This document shows, piece after piece, positions 17,000 to 28,402 of a DNA stretch of 42,508 nucleotides. A model generated the notes under the pieces. The model saw only the letters and a program-made list of their open reading frames with translations, ran no database searches and was not told the origin of the DNA. The DNA comes from a virus, in the IMG/VR virus record IMGVR_UViG_3300027852_000018, positions 1-42,508 of that record. One strand, given 5' to 3'. Each line of letters opens with the position of its first letter. Position 1 is the first letter of the stretch. The translations under genes were made by a program, and so were the position numbers.

Positions 17000-17509
17000 C
17001 TATTTTAATTTATTTTTAATCTTTGCTATTTGAGCTTTTGCATTCTTGCGTTTACTTGCTTTAGATTCATCCGATTCAATGCGCTTTGGTTGATAGTGTG
17101 GATGGGCTGGATTATTAAAGTCCATGTAAGCGCCTCCCTGTTGCTCCCAGGAGACGTCTTTGCCGTCTTGGTCTAATGCCCTGCCCTCACACAAAGCGCG
17201 GTACTGAGCGGCTCCTGGTGGCCACTGAGGGTATGTTTGTAAACAGGCTTCTAGCCCTGTCTTAATTTGAAGCTCATTTAAGCCTTTCAGGCAGGCAATC
17301 CAGGTAGGGTCTACCGATTCACCAAATTGGCTTGTGAACTTATGGCCGTACATGCTGGTTAAGATTGGCCAGATGTAAACACATGCTTCACGGGCTTTTT
17401 TAATCGTCTCTGATTTTTGCAAGCTCTCTGTTGCTGTTTTGCTGGACTCGTTCGACAAGTGAGAGTTTTTGATTACTTGGTTTATTTGTTTCACGTGAAA
17501 CCTTCCCAA
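17000..17509 (-). CDS. Lambda P-like replication protein (putative helicase loader); start unresolved
   Basis: WIACLKGLNELQIKTGLEACLQTYPQWPPGAAQYRALC resembles lambda P RQWVLAFRENGIT...PFLPSPGQFVAWC. The track start is a TTG lying 110 nt inside the O-like gene. Confidence 0.5.
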   Translation of the reverse strand: MGRFHVKQINQVIKNSHLSNESSKTATESLQKSETIKKAREACVYIWPILTSMYGHKFTSQFGESVDPTWIACLKGLNELQIKTGLEACLQTYPQWPPGAAQYRALCEGRALDQDGKDVSWEQQGGAYMDFNNPAHPHYQPKRIESDESKASKRKNAKAQIAKIKNKLK

Positions 17510-18254
17510 TGTTGTTGATAAAGAATTCTAGCTTTTCACCAGATCGGCAAATTAGCGTTAAATCATCGTAAATCGTTCCTGAGTCGTTTTCGCCCATGTG
17601 ATAAGCAGATTTTGCGCAGCCGTCAATGGCCTGCTTAATTTGGTCAACAGTGTAACCATCATTAAGCCTTGCCTTGATTTTCGCTTTTCGTTTGTCTGTG
17701 AATTTAGCTGTGTTGTTTTTCTGAAGAATTAATTTCCAATACTCGAATATATCAAGCAGGTCGGGTTTATCCGACATATGTTTTTCTCTAGGAATCAGGA
17801 TACAGGAATCAGGAATCAGGATACAGGAATCAGCCGGTGCCGTTCCGTTTTCATCGTGATTGGATCGAGATAAATCGCGATTAATCGTGAGTCCTTTTAA
17901 ATCAACAGCTTGCCGCATACTTTCAGAGAAGCAAGGAATAGAACTACCTTTTTGTTTTTCGTTTTTGTGAGGGTTCTGATGAGAACAGAAATTAACCACA
18001 TTTAGGTATATTTTATCCCCATCTGAGAAGAACCGAATGAACCCGAGCGAATCGAGATTAATCGCGATTTTTTTAATGTTGCAATTATCATAGGGCAAGA
18101 CAAGCGCTTTTATCTTTTTTTCACGCCACTCAACATCCCCTTTATAATCTGCAATTGTCCATAATCCGATAAAGAACAATCTGCCAATTGGGTCAATTTC
18201 AGCCAAAGTATCATTTGTAAAAAAGCTGTATTTTATATTTCTTGATCTTGGCAT
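17400..18254 (-). CDS. Replication initiator / replisome organiser (O-like; conserved phage C-terminal domain)
   Basis: C-terminal FEYWKLILQK...RKAKIKARLNDGYTVDQIKQAIDGCAKSAYHMGEN matches the conserved phage replication C-terminus. Iterons lie in the linker. Upstream of the P-like gene. Confidence 0.6.
   Translation of the reverse strand: MPRSRNIKYSFFTNDTLAEIDPIGRLFFIGLWTIADYKGDVEWREKKIKALVLPYDNCNIKKIAINLDSLGFIRFFSDGDKIYLNVVNFCSHQNPHKNEKQKGSSIPCFSESMRQAVDLKGLTINRDLSRSNHDENGTAPADSCILIPDSCILIPREKHMSDKPDLLDIFEYWKLILQKNNTAKFTDKRKAKIKARLNDGYTVDQIKQAIDGCAKSAYHMGENDSGTIYDDLTLICRSGEKLEFFINNIGKVSRETNKPSNQKLSLVERVQQNSNRELAKIRDD
17791..17832. repeat. Two perfect 21-bp tandem repeats containing four GGAATCAG iterons; candidate origin
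   Basis: ggaatcaggatacaggaatca occurs twice. Iterons start at 17791, 17805, 17812 and 17826. It encodes DSCILIP twice in the initiator linker. Confidence 0.5.
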
Positions 18255-18898
18255 TATTCAGCCTCGCAAGAATCAGGGAAGTTGATTGTGTGCTCAAGGT
18301 TGTTATCAATTACATATTTATCATAGGCTTTTGCTGCCGTTATTGGGTCTTTAAAACTTCCGAGAGTAACCCTCTTATAGTTAACTGAAATACTTACACT
18401 ATATTTTTTACATCCCTTTTTTTTACAAACACCTCGATAACCTGTTGTGTTTGTTGAGCGTAAGCGTCTAGTGTTCCTTAGCTGAGTTGCCATAGTGGAA
18501 AAGCGGCAATTACCTGGCTCATAATTCCCATCGTTGTTAATTCTATCTATAGATAAATTATCTTTATAACCATTATTTAAGCACCACTTTTCAAAAGTTA
18601 GGTAATCTGCCCATTCATCACAAACCTCTACACCTCTACCTCCATAATTCTTATATCCTGGTCTATTCGGGCTGTAGCACCTTTTCCTCATGCTTCGCCA
18701 AATACTGTAAATCCTGTCTTGACCATTAATATTGACTCTTTTCAACCGAATGCGGCAACCATTGCAAGTAGAGGTGCTTGGTATATCTATTCTTCTTTCA
18801 TAAACACAACCGCATTTTTGGCAAACAAACACCCCTTTTTTTACCAACTTTTTACAAGTTTTGTTTGGTTTTTTACCAATATCTAATAATAATATCAT
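18254..18898 (-). CDS. HNH homing endonuclease with AP2-type DNA-binding domain
   Basis: N-terminal CxxC pairs. DRINNDGNYEPGNCRF (HNH-type). C-terminal GYRGV...KYSVSISVNYKRVTLGSFKDPITAAKAYD (AP2 pattern). Confidence 0.7.
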   Translation of the reverse strand: MILLLDIGKKPNKTCKKLVKKGVFVCQKCGCVYERRIDIPSTSTCNGCRIRLKRVNINGQDRIYSIWRSMRKRCYSPNRPGYKNYGGRGVEVCDEWADYLTFEKWCLNNGYKDNLSIDRINNDGNYEPGNCRFSTMATQLRNTRRLRSTNTTGYRGVCKKKGCKKYSVSISVNYKRVTLGSFKDPITAAKAYDKYVIDNNLEHTINFPDSCEAE

Positions 18899-23889: not shown

Positions 23890-24168
23890 ATGTACATGCT
23901 TATAATTATCGTATCGATATGCGTACTTATTCGACAAGGGTATATATTATATAAGGTTCAATGGGGAGTGCTGATAAGGCAGTACTTAATCGAATGTAAA
24001 GTTAAATACAACAAGTGGCGATATTCATCTGGTTATAGGTGGGTAATTAAATCTTACTTCGTTGATCAAATAGACTTTAAAACTATTGAAAAGCATCGCT
24101 ATAACAGTAATAGTGCATTTGATAGGGGATGCCGAGAGGCTTTATTTAAAATAAGTGCTGGGGAATAA
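23890..24168 (+). CDS. Membrane-anchored hypothetical protein (92 aa)
   Basis: GGGGAAG SD. N-terminal TM segment MLIIIVSICVLI. Confidence 0.5.
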   Translation: MYMLIIIVSICVLIRQGYILYKVQWGVLIRQYLIECKVKYNKWRYSSGYRWVIKSYFVDQIDFKTIEKHRYNSNSAFDRGCREALFKISAGE

Positions 24169-24169
24169 A

Positions 24170-24367
24170 ATGGATGATTTTGATAAAATGTATAAGCAAT
24201 CCTTGAGGAGTCACAGAGCCAGGAGCAAAAAAATACTGGCCGAAAACGAAAGGGCTTATGATTCACTTAACGATAAATCCAGCAAGTATGCTAGGACAAT
24301 AAAAACTTTGCAGGACTTACACAAGCGAGCCCATGAAGTATATAAAAATGCTTCTAATGAAATATAA
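24170..24367 (+). CDS. Hypothetical helical protein (65 aa)
   Basis: ATG within the GGGGAATAAAATG junction cassette. Confidence 0.5.
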   Translation: MDDFDKMYKQSLRSHRARSKKILAENERAYDSLNDKSSKYARTIKTLQDLHKRAHEVYKNASNEI

Positions 24368-24404: not shown

Positions 24405-24413
24405 TGTTATATT
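24405..24413 (+). promoter_or_regulatory. Extended -10-like element TGTTATATT
   Basis: It places a TSS at ~24419-24421, the 5' end of the tRNA-like element. No -35. Confidence 0.3.
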
Positions 24414-24418
24414 TTGAA

Positions 24419-24505
24419 GTGGCTTGCAGGTAGCCACTAAGCACGGCGCAAAAATAGAAGCCTTAGCGGGCTTTAAAATGGGCTCGACTCCCATGAGCTA
24501 CACCA
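24419..24505 (+). other. tRNA-like element: 7-bp acceptor-type stem, anticodon-type arm, T-arm, discriminator A and encoded CCA; not a canonical tRNA
   Basis: GTGGCTT (24419..25) pairs with GAGCTAC (24495..501), including 2 G-U pairs. T-arm ATGGG-CTCGACT-CCCAT. AAGCC-ttagcg-GGCTT arm with a 6-nt loop. No D-arm; 32 nt where 19 are expected. Confidence 0.35.
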
Positions 24506-24545
24506 AAATATAACACCACACTATACAGATACACAAGGGAATAAC

Positions 24546-24761
24546 ATGAACTGGCTTCGGGATAGTGCAAAGTTTGGGATAGATGCCTTTTTATTAACTG
24601 TCTGCTTGTTGTTTTCTCTATCTTTGGTGATCATGCCAATGTTTGGGATTGCCGCTCTTGTGGACATACACGCAGCCTGGTTTCTGTTATATATTCCATG
24701 GGTGCTAACACTGGATATTACTAGCAAGCCACTTATGGCGTTTTTTGGTTATGGGGAATAA
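24546..24761 (+). CDS. Small multi-pass membrane protein (71 aa)
   Basis: AAGGGAA SD. Two to three hydrophobic segments. Confidence 0.55.
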   Translation: MNWLRDSAKFGIDAFLLTVCLLFSLSLVIMPMFGIAALVDIHAAWFLLYIPWVLTLDITSKPLMAFFGYGE

Positions 24762-25112: not shown

Positions 25113-25451
25113 ATGACCAAATGCCGAGTATCACTAGACGAACTAAACAACGACAAAGGCGACTACACCAGAGAAGATTATATGTACGACCTGGGGCGTA
25201 TTCAAAACAGGGCAACCGATATCATGGCTGATAAAGAGGCTTTCTTTGATTGCCTCGATGAACCCTTTGCAAACAATGAAATATCAGAACATGATGCAGA
25301 TGTAATACATTTAATGTATGAAGTAGATCACCGTTGTAAATTGCATCATTTCCCGTTCAAGGAATATGTATTTAAAGCTGCGTGCTATAAGCTTCAGTTA
25401 TGTTTTGAAGATTATAAAGATGATCTGATGATAGAGGATTGCAACGATTAA
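25113..25451 (+). CDS. Hypothetical acidic protein (112 aa)
   Basis: ATG in the GGAGAATAAAATG cassette. Confidence 0.55.
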   Translation: MTKCRVSLDELNNDKGDYTREDYMYDLGRIQNRATDIMADKEAFFDCLDEPFANNEISEHDADVIHLMYEVDHRCKLHHFPFKEYVFKAACYKLQLCFEDYKDDLMIEDCND

Positions 25452-25453
25452 TC

Positions 25454-25462
25454 TGGTATAAT
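25454..25462 (+). promoter_or_regulatory. Extended -10 promoter element TGGTATAAT
   Basis: Read directly, 3 nt after the stop of 25113..25451. Predicted TSS ~25469. Confidence 0.45.
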
Positions 25463-25468
25463 ATAGGA

Positions 25469-25703
25469 AAAGCGAAGTGATTCAGTTTGAGCTTTTGCGG
25501 AAAGATCGGAAAGGAACACGACGATGAAAAACCCGATCCTCACGCCTTGAGCTATGTAGTAAAGAGCCGGATACGCACAGCAACCACTTTTGTGGAGACC
25601 TGCTGCCAACGTTGCAAAGTCGGTGGTATTGTTCGGTGGACGCGCTCACCAATACCATATGCAAAGGCTCAAACTGAGTCACTACCAAACAAGGATTATT
25701 GCT
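25469..25703 (+). promoter_or_regulatory. Long structured leader RNA (riboswitch-like or processed RNA), class unassigned
   Basis: A 23-bp helix forms between 25476..25498 and 25661..25683, with 2 G-U pairs valid only in the plus-strand RNA. Internal hairpins at 25504..25538, 25578..25605 and 25624..25657. By eye the segment is more GC-rich than its flanks. The ORFs drawn here look non-coding. Confidence 0.5.
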
Positions 25704-26408
25704 ATGTCATTAACTCGTGATTTAACCCGTGATCTTACCAGACCTCTAACCCGTGACTTAACATCAAGTTCCGGTGTTACAAGTAGAAACCTTACTGAGC
25801 TTGTTAGCGCGAGCACCAAGTATTTTTCTTTTCCTGATTGGGTCACAGCTAACAACTATGAAGTGAGAATGAAATACACGCCTAGAAATTTCTCAAATTT
25901 AGCGTTTATCTTAGACCATCCAACTGGAATTTATTCACGAATTTATATAAATACATCAGGGCATCTAGTGACTAGGCATAGCTCAATAACAAAATCAGGG
26001 ACGGTGCAAACACTAACTTTAGATGAGGAGAACTTAATCTATATTATTGTCTCTGGCACATCGTTGAAAGGCTACGTAAATAATGTTTTAACTATTGACA
26101 CAACAGTAACACCTGTGGCGCAGACATTTAAATTTTCAGGGAAAAATTTTGCAGATACATTATATGTTGACGGCATTATATCAGAAATTGAACTTTCATC
26201 TAATGGGGTTCTTGAACGTTACTATAAAGCAAACGAAAGCTGGGCAGGCGCTTCAACCGTTCTCGCTGATTCATCAGGCAGCGGTCAGAATGGTACAGCC
26301 TTTAATATCACTAATGCTGATGCAGAGTCATTCACGTTAAATACAGCAGCAACCCCGGATCAGTGGGAAAATGGGGATCAATCTGTAATTATCCCCATTG
26401 CGTACTAA
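25704..26408 (+). CDS. LamG/concanavalin-like jelly-roll protein with N-terminal (LTRD)n repeats
   Basis: ATG 25704 with AAGGA 8 nt upstream. N-terminus MSLTRDLTRDLTRPLTRDLT. Body has LamG-like strands (SLKGYVNNVL, YVDGIISEIEL). Confidence 0.5.
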   Translation: MSLTRDLTRDLTRPLTRDLTSSSGVTSRNLTELVSASTKYFSFPDWVTANNYEVRMKYTPRNFSNLAFILDHPTGIYSRIYINTSGHLVTRHSSITKSGTVQTLTLDEENLIYIIVSGTSLKGYVNNVLTIDTTVTPVAQTFKFSGKNFADTLYVDGIISEIELSSNGVLERYYKANESWAGASTVLADSSGSGQNGTAFNITNADAESFTLNTAATPDQWENGDQSVIIPIAY

Positions 26409-28402
26409 ACTCCATCATAAACTGAAATACGCCAATCTTTTGCGTCAACATTCGCTGTGGCTATAATTCTGCATGTATGCCCCGTAGGGTTTACTACATA
26501 AGTAGCCCCGCCCATCACTGTCCACCCATCTGCCGCGTCTGTAGCGTCCAATTGAAGGGTTTGCGCACCCAATGTTAACGCTGGGTTACTGTCTCCAACT
26601 ATATTGAAATCTATAGCTGTGTGCCCAAATAATCGATTAAAATCATCTGCGTGTGTTAGCGTCCAAGTGGATGGTGCTGTGGATACAACCCAGTACGAAG
26701 GATCTTTGCTTTCTAAATATAATATTTGGGTTGATGATTTGGAGTTTCTTCCTGCTTGCTTATATTCGTATTGGCCAGTGTTATACCCGAATATTATACC
26801 TCTTAAGGACTCATATACAGGGTTAAGTTTATTAGATGTATATCGAGGTCCTATTGAAACATTTTTTGCAATACCGTCAGTGTAGTGGCCGTTTAACGTC
26901 AACCCGCTGTCTGTATCATTAGTTAGCTTAACAAAATCAAAATCTGTTGCCCCGCCGCCTTCCGCGTACACACCATTGATAACCCCGCCTTTATTGGCTG
27001 ACCCTCTATTCGACCCGTGCAAAACAGCTATTAGATCAAACTGTGATATCTGACCAGTAATAAGAGGATTATATAAAGATGAAAGCCTTATGCCGACACC
27101 GCATCTTGTAGTGTCCGCATGAGCGCAAGAAACAAGCCCGGTATCATTGCCAATGAATCGTATCCCACCTCCAATGACATACGCAAGAGTTCCGGCGGAA
27201 CCAATTGTGTTATCTATCCATGGGTGTACATCTACTGTCCCCGCGCCGGAATCAACTGCTCTAATGTGGTATAGCTCAGAATTAATTATCAACATGTCAT
27301 CGACAACAACTTCAGGTGGCAGGTTGTCTACGTCTATCGTAGTCGTTTGAGTGACTGATCCTGATGAACCGTTATTTACAATATTTGACCAGTTGGCTGT
27401 TACAGCTCCACTGCCAGACTTTTCCCAGGTTCCGCAGTCTTTAGCTCTTACTAGCCCGAGCTCTGCCAGATTATTACTTAAACCGCCTCCTAAACTACTT
27501 ACATCTATACCCCAACTTTTTGCATTTCTTGCATCTATAAAATCAAATTTAGCACGCGATACTAAACTTAAATGTATTGCTGTATCACACGTCCGTTCGC
27601 TATAATTTACACCACCTGTACCCCAAACTTTAAGTCTACCAATGAATCTAGTAGTAACAACGTTGGTTATCGATAAAACTATTGTTATTGCTTCAGTAGC
27701 CGTAATTTTTACATTAAGCTCGCATCTTTCAAGACCTGTGCCTGTCCACGTTAAACCCTGTGAGGTGAGCATGTCCCCAACTATTTCGCTCTCAGCAACC
27801 GAGTTAGTTTCACAATAGTAAAAGAAAGCCTGAAGCCTGGCGTAATCATCCCCGCCCGTAGGTAGCCCAAAGCCTTTTGTCGATACTACCCCTTTAACCC
27901 AAACCTGCTCAAACCTGAAATTCAATGTATCGTGATTAATAACACTGCCGCCGTCATCTGTACCGGTTCCAGAAAGGCAGTTAAAATATAATGGGCCTGC
28001 ATTTCTTCCGCTTGCGTAGTCTTTGAGAATGTAATAATCGCCTGCTGTTGCTGAAGCGTCTGCCGTCATGTTGGCGACATAATCCAGGTTTTTGTTTGTC
28101 CCTGTAGCTGATGTCAGCCCATTTGGCACGTAATCAGGGATGGTGTACATCGTTGAACCGTCATCATCCTTAACAACGATTTTATAAATTATGCCATTGT
28201 CGTAATAAATATCAGTTGCAGGTACGCCGCCCGTTGTAAGCGTTAATGATGTACCACCAAGAGTTCCGGTATCATCGGTATAATAGGGCGTTGGTGTGCT
28301 GGTGCCTTCAAGATAGAATTCAATGGTTCCGCCCGCCATTGGGCGACCAGTGATATAATCCATGAATTGCGGCTTGAATGGTTCGCCTTTTACATACGCC
28401 AT
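26405..28402 (-). CDS. Tailspike / depolymerase-like receptor-binding protein (665 aa)
   Basis: Last gene of the late operon with a P22 gp9-like size. N-terminal 85 aa shared with 28406..29311. KGFGLPTGGDDYARLQAFFYY resembles the pectate-lyase-3 tailspike entry motif. Beta-helix-like repeats. Confidence 0.6.
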   Translation of the reverse strand: MAYVKGEPFKPQFMDYITGRPMAGGTIEFYLEGTSTPTPYYTDDTGTLGGTSLTLTTGGVPATDIYYDNGIIYKIVVKDDDGSTMYTIPDYVPNGLTSATGTNKNLDYVANMTADASATAGDYYILKDYASGRNAGPLYFNCLSGTGTDDGGSVINHDTLNFRFEQVWVKGVVSTKGFGLPTGGDDYARLQAFFYYCETNSVAESEIVGDMLTSQGLTWTGTGLERCELNVKITATEAITIVLSITNVVTTRFIGRLKVWGTGGVNYSERTCDTAIHLSLVSRAKFDFIDARNAKSWGIDVSSLGGGLSNNLAELGLVRAKDCGTWEKSGSGAVTANWSNIVNNGSSGSVTQTTTIDVDNLPPEVVVDDMLIINSELYHIRAVDSGAGTVDVHPWIDNTIGSAGTLAYVIGGGIRFIGNDTGLVSCAHADTTRCGVGIRLSSLYNPLITGQISQFDLIAVLHGSNRGSANKGGVINGVYAEGGGATDFDFVKLTNDTDSGLTLNGHYTDGIAKNVSIGPRYTSNKLNPVYESLRGIIFGYNTGQYEYKQAGRNSKSSTQILYLESKDPSYWVVSTAPSTWTLTHADDFNRLFGHTAIDFNIVGDSNPALTLGAQTLQLDATDAADGWTVMGGATYVVNPTGHTCRIIATANVDAKDWRISVYDGV

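Follow-up and report, generated by a model that had tools for sequence, protein, structure and literature searches.

Organization of the locus

The stretch of DNA analyzed here, called the window, is 42,508 nucleotides long and looks like a complete podovirus genome whose portal and adaptor proteins are of the SU10 type. Its two ends are occupied by minus-strand genes, one for the terminase and the other for the portal protein. The 48 ORFs include members of the RecT, YqaJ exonuclease, NinB, replication initiator, and HNH endonuclease families, an Rnl1-like RNA ligase, and a YdaS/Cro-like regulator, and an AP2-domain protein is encoded at 18257-18898, about 7 kb from the insert described below. 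No transposase, integrase, invertase, or reverse transcriptase was found among the 48 ORFs. The early operon reuses the junction GGGGAATAAAATG, with 7 matches where 0.25 are expected. Searches of GenBank phages found no nucleotide relatives of this phage.

The locus of interest lies between two plus-strand genes. Its features are as follows.

25113..25451, plus strand: upstream gene, an ORF of 112 amino acids with no function assigned; the left neighbor used to find relatives.
25449-25451, plus strand: TAA stop codon of the 112-amino-acid ORF.
25454..25462, plus strand: extended -10 element TGGTATAAT, which belongs to the ancestral site and is outside the insert.
25473..25693, or equally 25470-25690: insertion of 221 bp relative to empty sites; AAG is found at both edges, which gives a 3-nt ambiguity.
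25476..25498: left arm, the terminal inverted repeat that forms the 5' strand of the closing helix.
25499..25660: core, 162 nt, GC-rich and non-coding, without significant structure of its own or a homolog.
25661..25683: right arm, the terminal inverted repeat that forms the 3' strand of the closing helix.
25684..25690, plus strand: 7-nt tail ACCAAAC between the right arm and the Shine-Dalgarno (SD) sequence; part of the insert and missing at empty sites.
25691-25695, plus strand: SD sequence AAGGA, ancestral, in filled and empty sites alike.
25704-25706, plus strand: ATG start codon of the downstream gene, ancestral, in filled and empty sites alike.
25704..26408, plus strand: downstream gene, 234 amino acids, LamG/LNS jelly-roll fold, hypervariable among relatives.

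A tail-fibre-like gene on the minus strand (26405-28402) is convergent with the LamG-fold gene.

The downstream gene had been placed on the opposite strand by an earlier, sequence-only reading of this DNA; it is in fact on the same strand as the leader that precedes it. An AlphaFold2 model of its product has a mean pLDDT of 71, and the best Foldseek matches of that model are neurexin LNS/LG domains (E = 1.6e-6). A repeat of the pentapeptide LTRDL marks the N-terminal part of the protein and a conserved motif its C-terminal part. The body diverges strongly among relatives, to which the whole gene is 27-42% identical in protein sequence and 53-57% in nucleotide sequence. A role in host recognition is plausible. 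The product of the upstream gene is 79-88% identical to its counterparts in relatives.

The extended -10 element begins 2 nt past the TAA of the upstream gene, where the earlier reading had seen it. The pattern TGnTATAAT follows the stop codon in nine of nine relatives, whether their sites are filled or empty, and it is missed by a simple two-hexamer scan because there is no -35 hexamer. Its sequence and position suggest that it acts as a promoter. If transcription starts about 7 nt past the -10 element, the leader would be 235 nt long at the filled site, compared with about 14 nt in the ancestral arrangement. The SD sequence does follow the helix closed by the two arms, which ends 7 nt before it. 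The impression by eye that this segment is richer in GC than its surroundings was correct: GC content is 0.52 at 25500-25649, compared with 0.32-0.36 upstream and 0.33-0.37 downstream.

The closing helix is the only significant structure in the leader

Of the 23 positions over which the two arms pair, two are mismatched (25481/25678 and 25493/25666), in both cases T-G, which confirms the pairing described from sequence alone. This pair of arms is the longest inverted repeat within 500 nt across the whole 42.5-kb window. The only recurrence in the window of a 17-mer from one arm is the other arm, with 0.16 matches expected by chance. The complete leader RNA (25469-25704) has a predicted folding energy of -79.6 kcal/mol, with z = -5.0. 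Compared with dinucleotide shuffles, the interior (25499-25660) gives z = +0.52 on the plus strand and -0.51 on the minus strand. The 23-bp helix is real and far beyond chance, and it is the only significant structure in the leader. Three hairpins had been proposed for the enclosed sequence; they do appear in the minimum free energy fold, but the interior as a whole is no more stable than its shuffles, and hairpins like these are to be expected from any sequence with this base composition.

Both mismatches in the arms would be G-U pairs in a plus-strand RNA, and this had been read as a sign that the plus strand is the one that folds. The G-U pairs are there, but the minus strand of the 208-nt element bounded by the inverted repeats is as stable as the plus strand (-75.6 and -75.7 kcal/mol, respectively). 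The G-U bias also differs between this insert and the second type of insert described below, so neither G-U pairs nor folding energy gives a consistent strand assignment.

No terminator was found after the helix. The first six nucleotides of the transcript are predicted to be mostly unpaired (0.67-0.89). For predicted transcripts of 283 nt from the filled site and 62 nt from the empty site, the ribosome binding site has a predicted unpaired probability of 0.40-0.57 with the insert and about 0.6 without it, which is only a moderate reduction.

The insert is non-coding and matches no known RNA family

The insert encodes nothing. Its ORFs have no Pfam match and no database homolog, a 68-amino-acid minus-strand ORF that spans the element has no homolog among 5.8 billion proteins, and none of the ORFs is kept in the second type of insert. 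These results agree with the earlier impression that the ORFs drawn across the segment are non-coding. ARAGORN detected no tRNA or tmRNA.

At the gathering score, Rfam gives no matches in the whole window. At E ≤ 10, a search of 25300-25850 that covered cobalamin riboswitches, introns, and self-cleaving ribozymes gave two chance matches, both outside the element. The resemblance of a short string in the core to the cobalamin B12 box, noted in the sequence-only reading, therefore has no counterpart inside the element even at this permissive threshold.

Empty and filled sites in relatives

Relatives were found by protein searches with both neighboring genes. They comprise nine contigs, from metagenomes and one NCBI assembly. 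Five of the nine (L031, L034, L036, L037, and L038) have an empty orthologous site, in which the stop codon is followed by TGnTATAAT, about 14-20 nt, and the ATG, with the same SD sequence. The extended -10 element at the empty sites is TGGTATAAT, but TGTTATAAT in L038. The empty site of L031 and L034 reads TGGTATAATATAGGAAAAGGATTATACCTATG, and the window has 221 extra bases at that position. Alignment with the five orthologous sites shows these bases to be an insertion relative to all of them. The relatives with empty sites include those furthest from the window, at 50-79% protein identity, so the simplest view is that the ancestral site was empty.

The filled sites are of two types. Type 1 is found in the window and in two other lineages, L039 and L040 together with L030, and all four copies share one orientation. 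Type 2 is found at the same site in L033. Between the window and the other type 1 contigs (L039, L040, L030) nucleotide identity in the element is 97-98%, compared with 83% for the upstream gene and 53-60% for the downstream gene. A map of differences between the window and its type 1 relatives shows 8 differences across 25443-25724, compared with about 9 per 50 nt in the upstream flank and 16-33 per 50 nt in the downstream flank. The conserved region extends past the insert for about 30-40 nt on each side in all close relatives, and takes in the promoter on the left and the SD sequence with the first 21 nt of the gene on the right. The upstream genes of L040 (type 1), L033 (type 2), and L031 (empty) are mutually 95-96% identical.

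The aligned copies show that the distribution and the divergence of the element disagree with those of its flanks. Near-identity across diverged hosts, together with three states of the site in close relatives, argues for lateral movement and not for a vertically inherited regulatory leader. Recent transfer is also a simpler explanation of 98% identity in the element than constraint on all 208 nt. The copy in L040 and L030 differs from that of the window by 4 substitutions; 2 of these are in the right arm (25668 and 25676), and one helix substitution creates a C-A mismatch.

Three of the contigs end within the element, L039 at about 25540 and L040 at about 25572, with L030 starting at 25512. 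Assemblers break where diverged strains share a near-identical stretch.

A second type of insert has related ends and an unrelated core

L033 has 216 extra bases at the site, and the part bounded by its inverted repeats is 205 nt long, compared with 208 nt in type 1. Its closing helix is of 13 + 6 bp, and if indels are allowed its arms remain similar over about 40 nt. The two types are related in the outer 11 nt of their arms (TATGATTTAGT in type 2 and AGTGATTCAGT in type 1) and in the tails that follow the right arm (TAACCAC and ACCAAAC, respectively).

When the arms of the two types are compared, 8 of 23 pairs have changed on both sides and 92.8% of cells are paired, a comparison that covers only two independent lineages. 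No shuffle reaches 92.8%, and controls in which the arms were slid are 29-47% paired. The aligned arms show that complementarity of the ends has been maintained; an RNA helix and transposon-type terminal repeats would both fit. Conservation of the helix in relatives, to which the earlier reading had pointed, is therefore found in part: the helix is kept with compensatory changes in the divergent L033, but it is absent from five relatives.

The cores of the two types are not significantly similar in either orientation (local score of 18, compared with 16.0 ± 2.2 for shuffles), and the score of their global alignment is within the range of shuffles. A shared 9-mer, AGGAACACG, was considered as a common core element and rejected; it lies in different structural contexts in the two types, which suggests coincidence. 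Folding of the type 2 core gives z = -0.13 on the plus strand and -2.0 on the minus strand, the latter being better because mismatches in the extended arms read as G-U there. Rfam at E ≤ 10 gives no match in the L033 insert.

Searches for further copies

Neither type of insert has a nucleotide match among GenBank phages or PLSDB plasmids, in searches run in both near and distant modes. The arm motif does not recur in the phage genome above chance. An arm 16-mer gave 27 single-arm chance matches in IMG/VR, none with both arms, and an arm 20-mer gave 6 single-arm chance matches in GTDB representatives of 185,579 species, the best of which (L041) lies inside an ORF of 380 amino acids. A three-motif pattern gave 0 matches in IMG/VR and 0 in GTDB genomes. 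A generalized terminal-repeat pattern detected 85 loci in IMG/VR, at none of which did the helix extend beyond the pattern. Searching IMG/VR with the type 2 arms produced 0 matches.

Comparison with known classes of element

The anatomy of the insert is that of a miniature inverted-repeat transposable element (MITE). MITEs have terminal inverted repeats of at least 10-15 bp, and the insert has repeats of 23 nt with 2 mismatches. They are 50-800 bp long without coding capacity, and the insert is 221 bp long (208 bp between and including the repeats). Its presence or absence is independent of host phylogeny, with five empty sites, three filled lineages, and two types. Dispersed copies or a transposase-bearing partner were sought in the phage, IMG/VR, and GTDB genomes, and none was found. 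A MITE is flanked by a target-site duplication of 2-10 bp. Comparison of filled with empty sites yields an overlap of 2-3 nt (AA or AAG) within the A-rich GGAAAAGG, or alternatively a degenerate 7-8-mer (as a 7-mer, AAAAAAG / AAACAAG); both are of low complexity and compatible with chance. The insert has the anatomy and population behavior of a MITE, but neither extra copies nor a partner turned up in the collections searched; we therefore describe it as MITE-like in its workings and do not assign it to that class.

Several other classes were rejected. Group I and group II introns give no model match at E ≤ 10, and each of the four possible 5' borders is preceded by A or G instead of U; the GUGYG...AY of group II introns is also not found. 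A retron ncRNA (msr-msd) is not indicated, because no reverse transcriptase family was found among the 48 ORFs and the adjoining gene has a LamG fold and is also present at empty sites. An inverton does not fit, since all copies have the same orientation and no site-specific recombinase family was detected.

The insert is also similar to the Correia elements (CREE/NEMIS) of Neisseria, which are likewise small and non-coding (about 100-160 bp for CREE, compared with 208-221 bp here). Correia elements and MITEs share with it inverted repeats of about 25 bp, presence or absence at orthologous sites, and a possible position between promoter and gene. A Correia element in that position becomes part of the mRNA, and its paired repeats are cut by RNase III (PMC2649163). 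The likeness to CREE is one of anatomy and behavior. Correia elements and MITEs are multicopy with a defined target duplication (TA for CREE), whereas the insert is present in one copy per genome with an ambiguous duplication, its repeats lie 3-7 nt inside the borders, and two unrelated cores occupy one site. MITEs do occur in phages, but they are rare, being reported in a small fraction of phage genomes (PMC11602168).

The insert here is optional, has a fixed site, different sequence types, and pairing ends, and in these respects resembles the intervening sequences (IVS) of 23S rRNA. The IVS, about 100-200 nt long, occupy a fixed site in some strains and are missing from others, and they are of several sequence types. 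RNase III cuts the long stem formed by their paired ends, and the host RNA thereby tolerates the insertion. The IVS are located in rRNA helices, whereas the insert is in an mRNA leader and its excision by RNase III is only a proposal.

Short conserved sequences at gene borders allow module swapping by recombination in the PeSL cassettes of T4-type phages and in the boundary sequences of lambdoid phages, where promoter or terminator stem-loops of about 50 nt serve as homology. The insert is comparable in being flanked by about 30-40 nt of conserved sequence at a gene border. The exchanged unit differs, being a 220-bp non-coding block with a long-range inverted repeat. Likeness to the cobalamin riboswitch (RF00174) is limited to the short B12-box-like string and the position in a 5' leader; the insert has no model match at any threshold tried, no aptamer conserved in relatives, and no expression platform. 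The insert is unusual in combining a single site and a single copy with two cores that are unrelated but have related ends. Two such cores at the same site hint at site-specific insertion or at cassette exchange by the recombination system of the phage itself.

Interpretation of the insert

With confidence only a little above even, we favor the explanation that the locus carries a dispensable, laterally exchanged, non-coding insertion that is bounded by inverted repeats, is co-transcribed with the LamG-fold gene, and folds back on itself. An insert of about 220 bp would have landed between the +1 region of the extended -10 promoter and the SD sequence of that gene. It may have originated in a MITE-like event with a transposase acting in trans, of which the terminal inverted repeats and a possible short A-rich target duplication would be the footprint. 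Later spread between co-infecting phages may have been by recombination through the conserved flanks of about 30-40 nt, by way of the phage RecT/YqaJ. Flanking homology of 30-40 nt would be enough for the phage RecT, so cassette exchange would be sufficient for the recent spread.

The extended -10 element is conserved in every relative and the insert lies downstream of it; transcription from this element should therefore place the insert at the 5' end of the mRNA. The arms would close into the 23-bp duplex, with the whole insert sequestered and the 5' tip and ribosome binding site single-stranded. By comparison with Correia elements and rRNA intervening sequences, a duplex of 23 bp would be long enough to be an RNase III substrate. 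Cleavage would restore a short, ancestral-like leader, and we propose that the insertion is tolerated at so sensitive a place because the short leader would be returned in this way. An RNA processed by RNase III, one of the possibilities raised in the sequence-only reading, is plausible, with an uninterrupted helix of 23 bp expected in the transcript shortly past the conserved -10 element; nothing requires the new phage regulatory RNA that it also raised. Some observations stand against the preferred explanation. No copy of either insert was found in another context in all the collections searched, no transposase, integrase, or reverse transcriptase was found among the 48 ORFs, the target duplication is ambiguous, two cores at one site demand strong target specificity or cassette exchange, and the inverted repeats are not strictly terminal, with 3-4 extra nt on the left and 7 nt on the right.

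The same observations can be read as those of an exchangeable functional RNA leader, a cassette that is retained for its RNA function and moved only by homologous recombination of its flanks, with an inverted repeat that exists for RNA folding and not for a transposase. Such a leader could stabilize the 5' end, carry an RNase III processing site by which the amount or timing of the LamG-fold protein is controlled, or release an RNA about 200 nt long that is stable or acts in trans. We hold it to be rather unlikely, though it is the main rival. Its position directly downstream of a promoter element common to all relatives, the accessible ribosome binding site, and the nearly equal lengths of the two inserts would suit it, as would the lack of a transposase or other copies in the searches. 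The closing helix is kept in both types despite sequence change, but 2 of the 4 recent substitutions hit that helix, one of them making the C-A mismatch, and the core has neither significant folding nor conservation between types. The element is far better conserved than its flanks, for which recent transfer is the simpler explanation; five relatives do without it, so it is dispensable; and neither folding energy nor G-U pairs show a strand preference. A more elaborate reading is improbable in our judgment, namely that these are undescribed, ORF-less leader cassettes with pairing termini and a 3' tail, a swappable core of fixed length (about 185 nt), and a functional RNA released by cleavage. 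If it were true, the released RNA could, for example, serve as a decoy or sponge or act in trans, with versions tuned to different hosts, and such host-tuned RNAs would parallel the hypervariability of the adjoining LamG-fold gene.

Readings that give the insert a role in the DNA, or a mobility at the level of RNA, agree with less of the evidence. A cis element in the DNA (a phase-variable invertible switch, a site for protein binding or looping, or a cruciform recombination hotspot) would account for an inverted repeat that is equally good on both strands and that sits exactly at the boundary of the 83%-identical and 53-60%-identical genes, a mosaic junction. It is decidedly improbable: the four type 1 copies all point the same way, the searches found neither an invertase nor any other site-specific recombinase, the arm motif is not recurrent in the genome above chance, and relatives dispense with it. 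We consider very improbable a new ORF-less, site-specific mobile RNA element, intron-like or ribozyme, that homes into the leader. The distribution is like that of homing, with presence or absence at the same site and high identity across diverged hosts, and a position in a transcribed region would allow removal from the RNA; but there is no match to group I or II introns or self-cleaving ribozymes, no U precedes any possible 5' boundary, GUGYG...AY is missing, no reverse transcriptase was found and no endonuclease adjoins the site, and the cores of the two types are unrelated to each other and, by folding energy, unstructured. The proposal of a riboswitch-like sensor, in which a ligand-sensing leader with a cobalamin-like core would control the LamG-fold gene, is scarcely credible. 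A long 5' leader whose closing helix ends 7 nt before the SD sequence invites it, and the alternative CCUUG/CAAGG pairing does exist in the sequence. Neither type of insert matches an Rfam model at E ≤ 10, however, shuffled interiors are as stable as the real one, the two types have no conserved core in common, five relatives have the same gene behind a predicted leader of about 14 nt and no element, no terminator follows the helix, and most of the ribosome binding site should be accessible according to the prediction. The analysis does not support a riboswitch, and the element does not appear to sense a ligand.

Significance

If the preferred explanation, a laterally exchanged insertion that folds back on itself, is right, what looks in a single genome like a structured leader would be the fold-back of a small insertion and not a sensor. 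The decisive property, presence/absence polymorphism with a phylogeny discordant with that of the flanks, could not be revealed by a single sequence. Comparison of orthologous sites settles such leaders quickly, and this is a caution for riboswitch hunting in phage genomes. Insertions that resemble transposable elements are rare in phages, and this one lies precisely in the first transcribed stretch of a LamG-fold gene that is hypervariable and possibly functions in host interaction. If RNase III excises it, the insert would be an mRNA-leader counterpart of the rRNA intervening sequences and the Correia elements.

LamG-fold gene and a recurring gene junction

The LamG-fold protein encoded downstream of the insert (25704-26408) carries an N-terminal pentapeptide repeat, LTRDL TRDLT RPLTR DLT, and a C-terminal motif, TPDQWEN..IIPIAY, that is strongly conserved in the window and in the relatives P0002-P0005. 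Identity in the intervening jelly-roll body is only 27-42%, in phages that share 79-88% identity in the neighbouring gene. The ends of this hypervariable module are conserved.

Several small early genes are preceded by a stop-RBS-start junction, GGGGAATAAAATG, which has seven matches in the window at ≤1 mismatch, versus 0.25 expected.

24160, 24753, 24910 and 25103, + strand: junction copies, ≤1 mismatch
9747, 10060 and 16105, - strand: junction copies, ≤1 mismatch

The junction is also found in the related phages L031 and L038, and a possible role for it is to provide the common homology through which modules are shuffled in this mosaic operon. The exception is the LamG-fold gene, which has its own predicted promoter in place of the junction.

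Other inverted repeats

The + strand operon of the insert (the ~220-bp non-coding insertion bounded by inverted repeats) also contains a second long-range inverted repeat, lying in the 178 nt that separate ORF 24155..24367 from ORF 24546..24761.

24405-24424 / 24496-24515, + strand: arms of 20 nt, 85% complementary

The folding energy of 24405-24515 on this strand is -45.1 kcal/mol (z = -1.9). The 3' part of the repeat reads ATGGGCTCGACTCCCAT-GAGCTAC-A-CCA, which resembles a tRNA T-arm with a 3' acceptor strand, a discriminator base and CCA after it; neither ARAGORN nor Rfam called a tRNA or RNA family at 24405-24515. L031 differs from the window in sequence at this site and has the right flank in common with it.

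Close relatives possess a further inverted repeat, inside the 112-aa gene upstream of the insertion site.

L031, 1695-1712 / 1845-1862: 18-nt arms with 132 nt between them
L034, 415-582: same repeat
L039, 1566-1727: same repeat

The arms are 94-100% complementary in these three phages; in the window, this gene had no reported inverted repeat.

Probable replication region

ORF 17400..18254, probably the replication-initiator match of the PHROG list, contains a repeat pair, and an AP2-domain gene lies beside it.

17872-17893 / 18049-18070, inside ORF 17400..18254: repeats of 22 nt, 86% complementary, 155 nt apart
18257-18898, - strand: 214-aa protein, C-terminal AP2 domain (sub-threshold Pfam hit)

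Each arm of the pair is itself partly palindromic (TCGCGATTAATCG), and the repeats may be iteron- or origin-type sites. The 214-aa protein is probably the source of one strong PHROG HNH-endonuclease match, such matches being listed per family without assignment to an ORF. If so, its gene would be a free-standing, homing-endonuclease-like gene adjoining the replication genes; no connection between it and the insert was found.

Relative from a named assembly

L038 (NCBI GCA_001044975.1, AZIB01000003.1), whose orthologous site is empty of the insert, is the sole relative from a named NCBI assembly, which may hint at the host of these phages.
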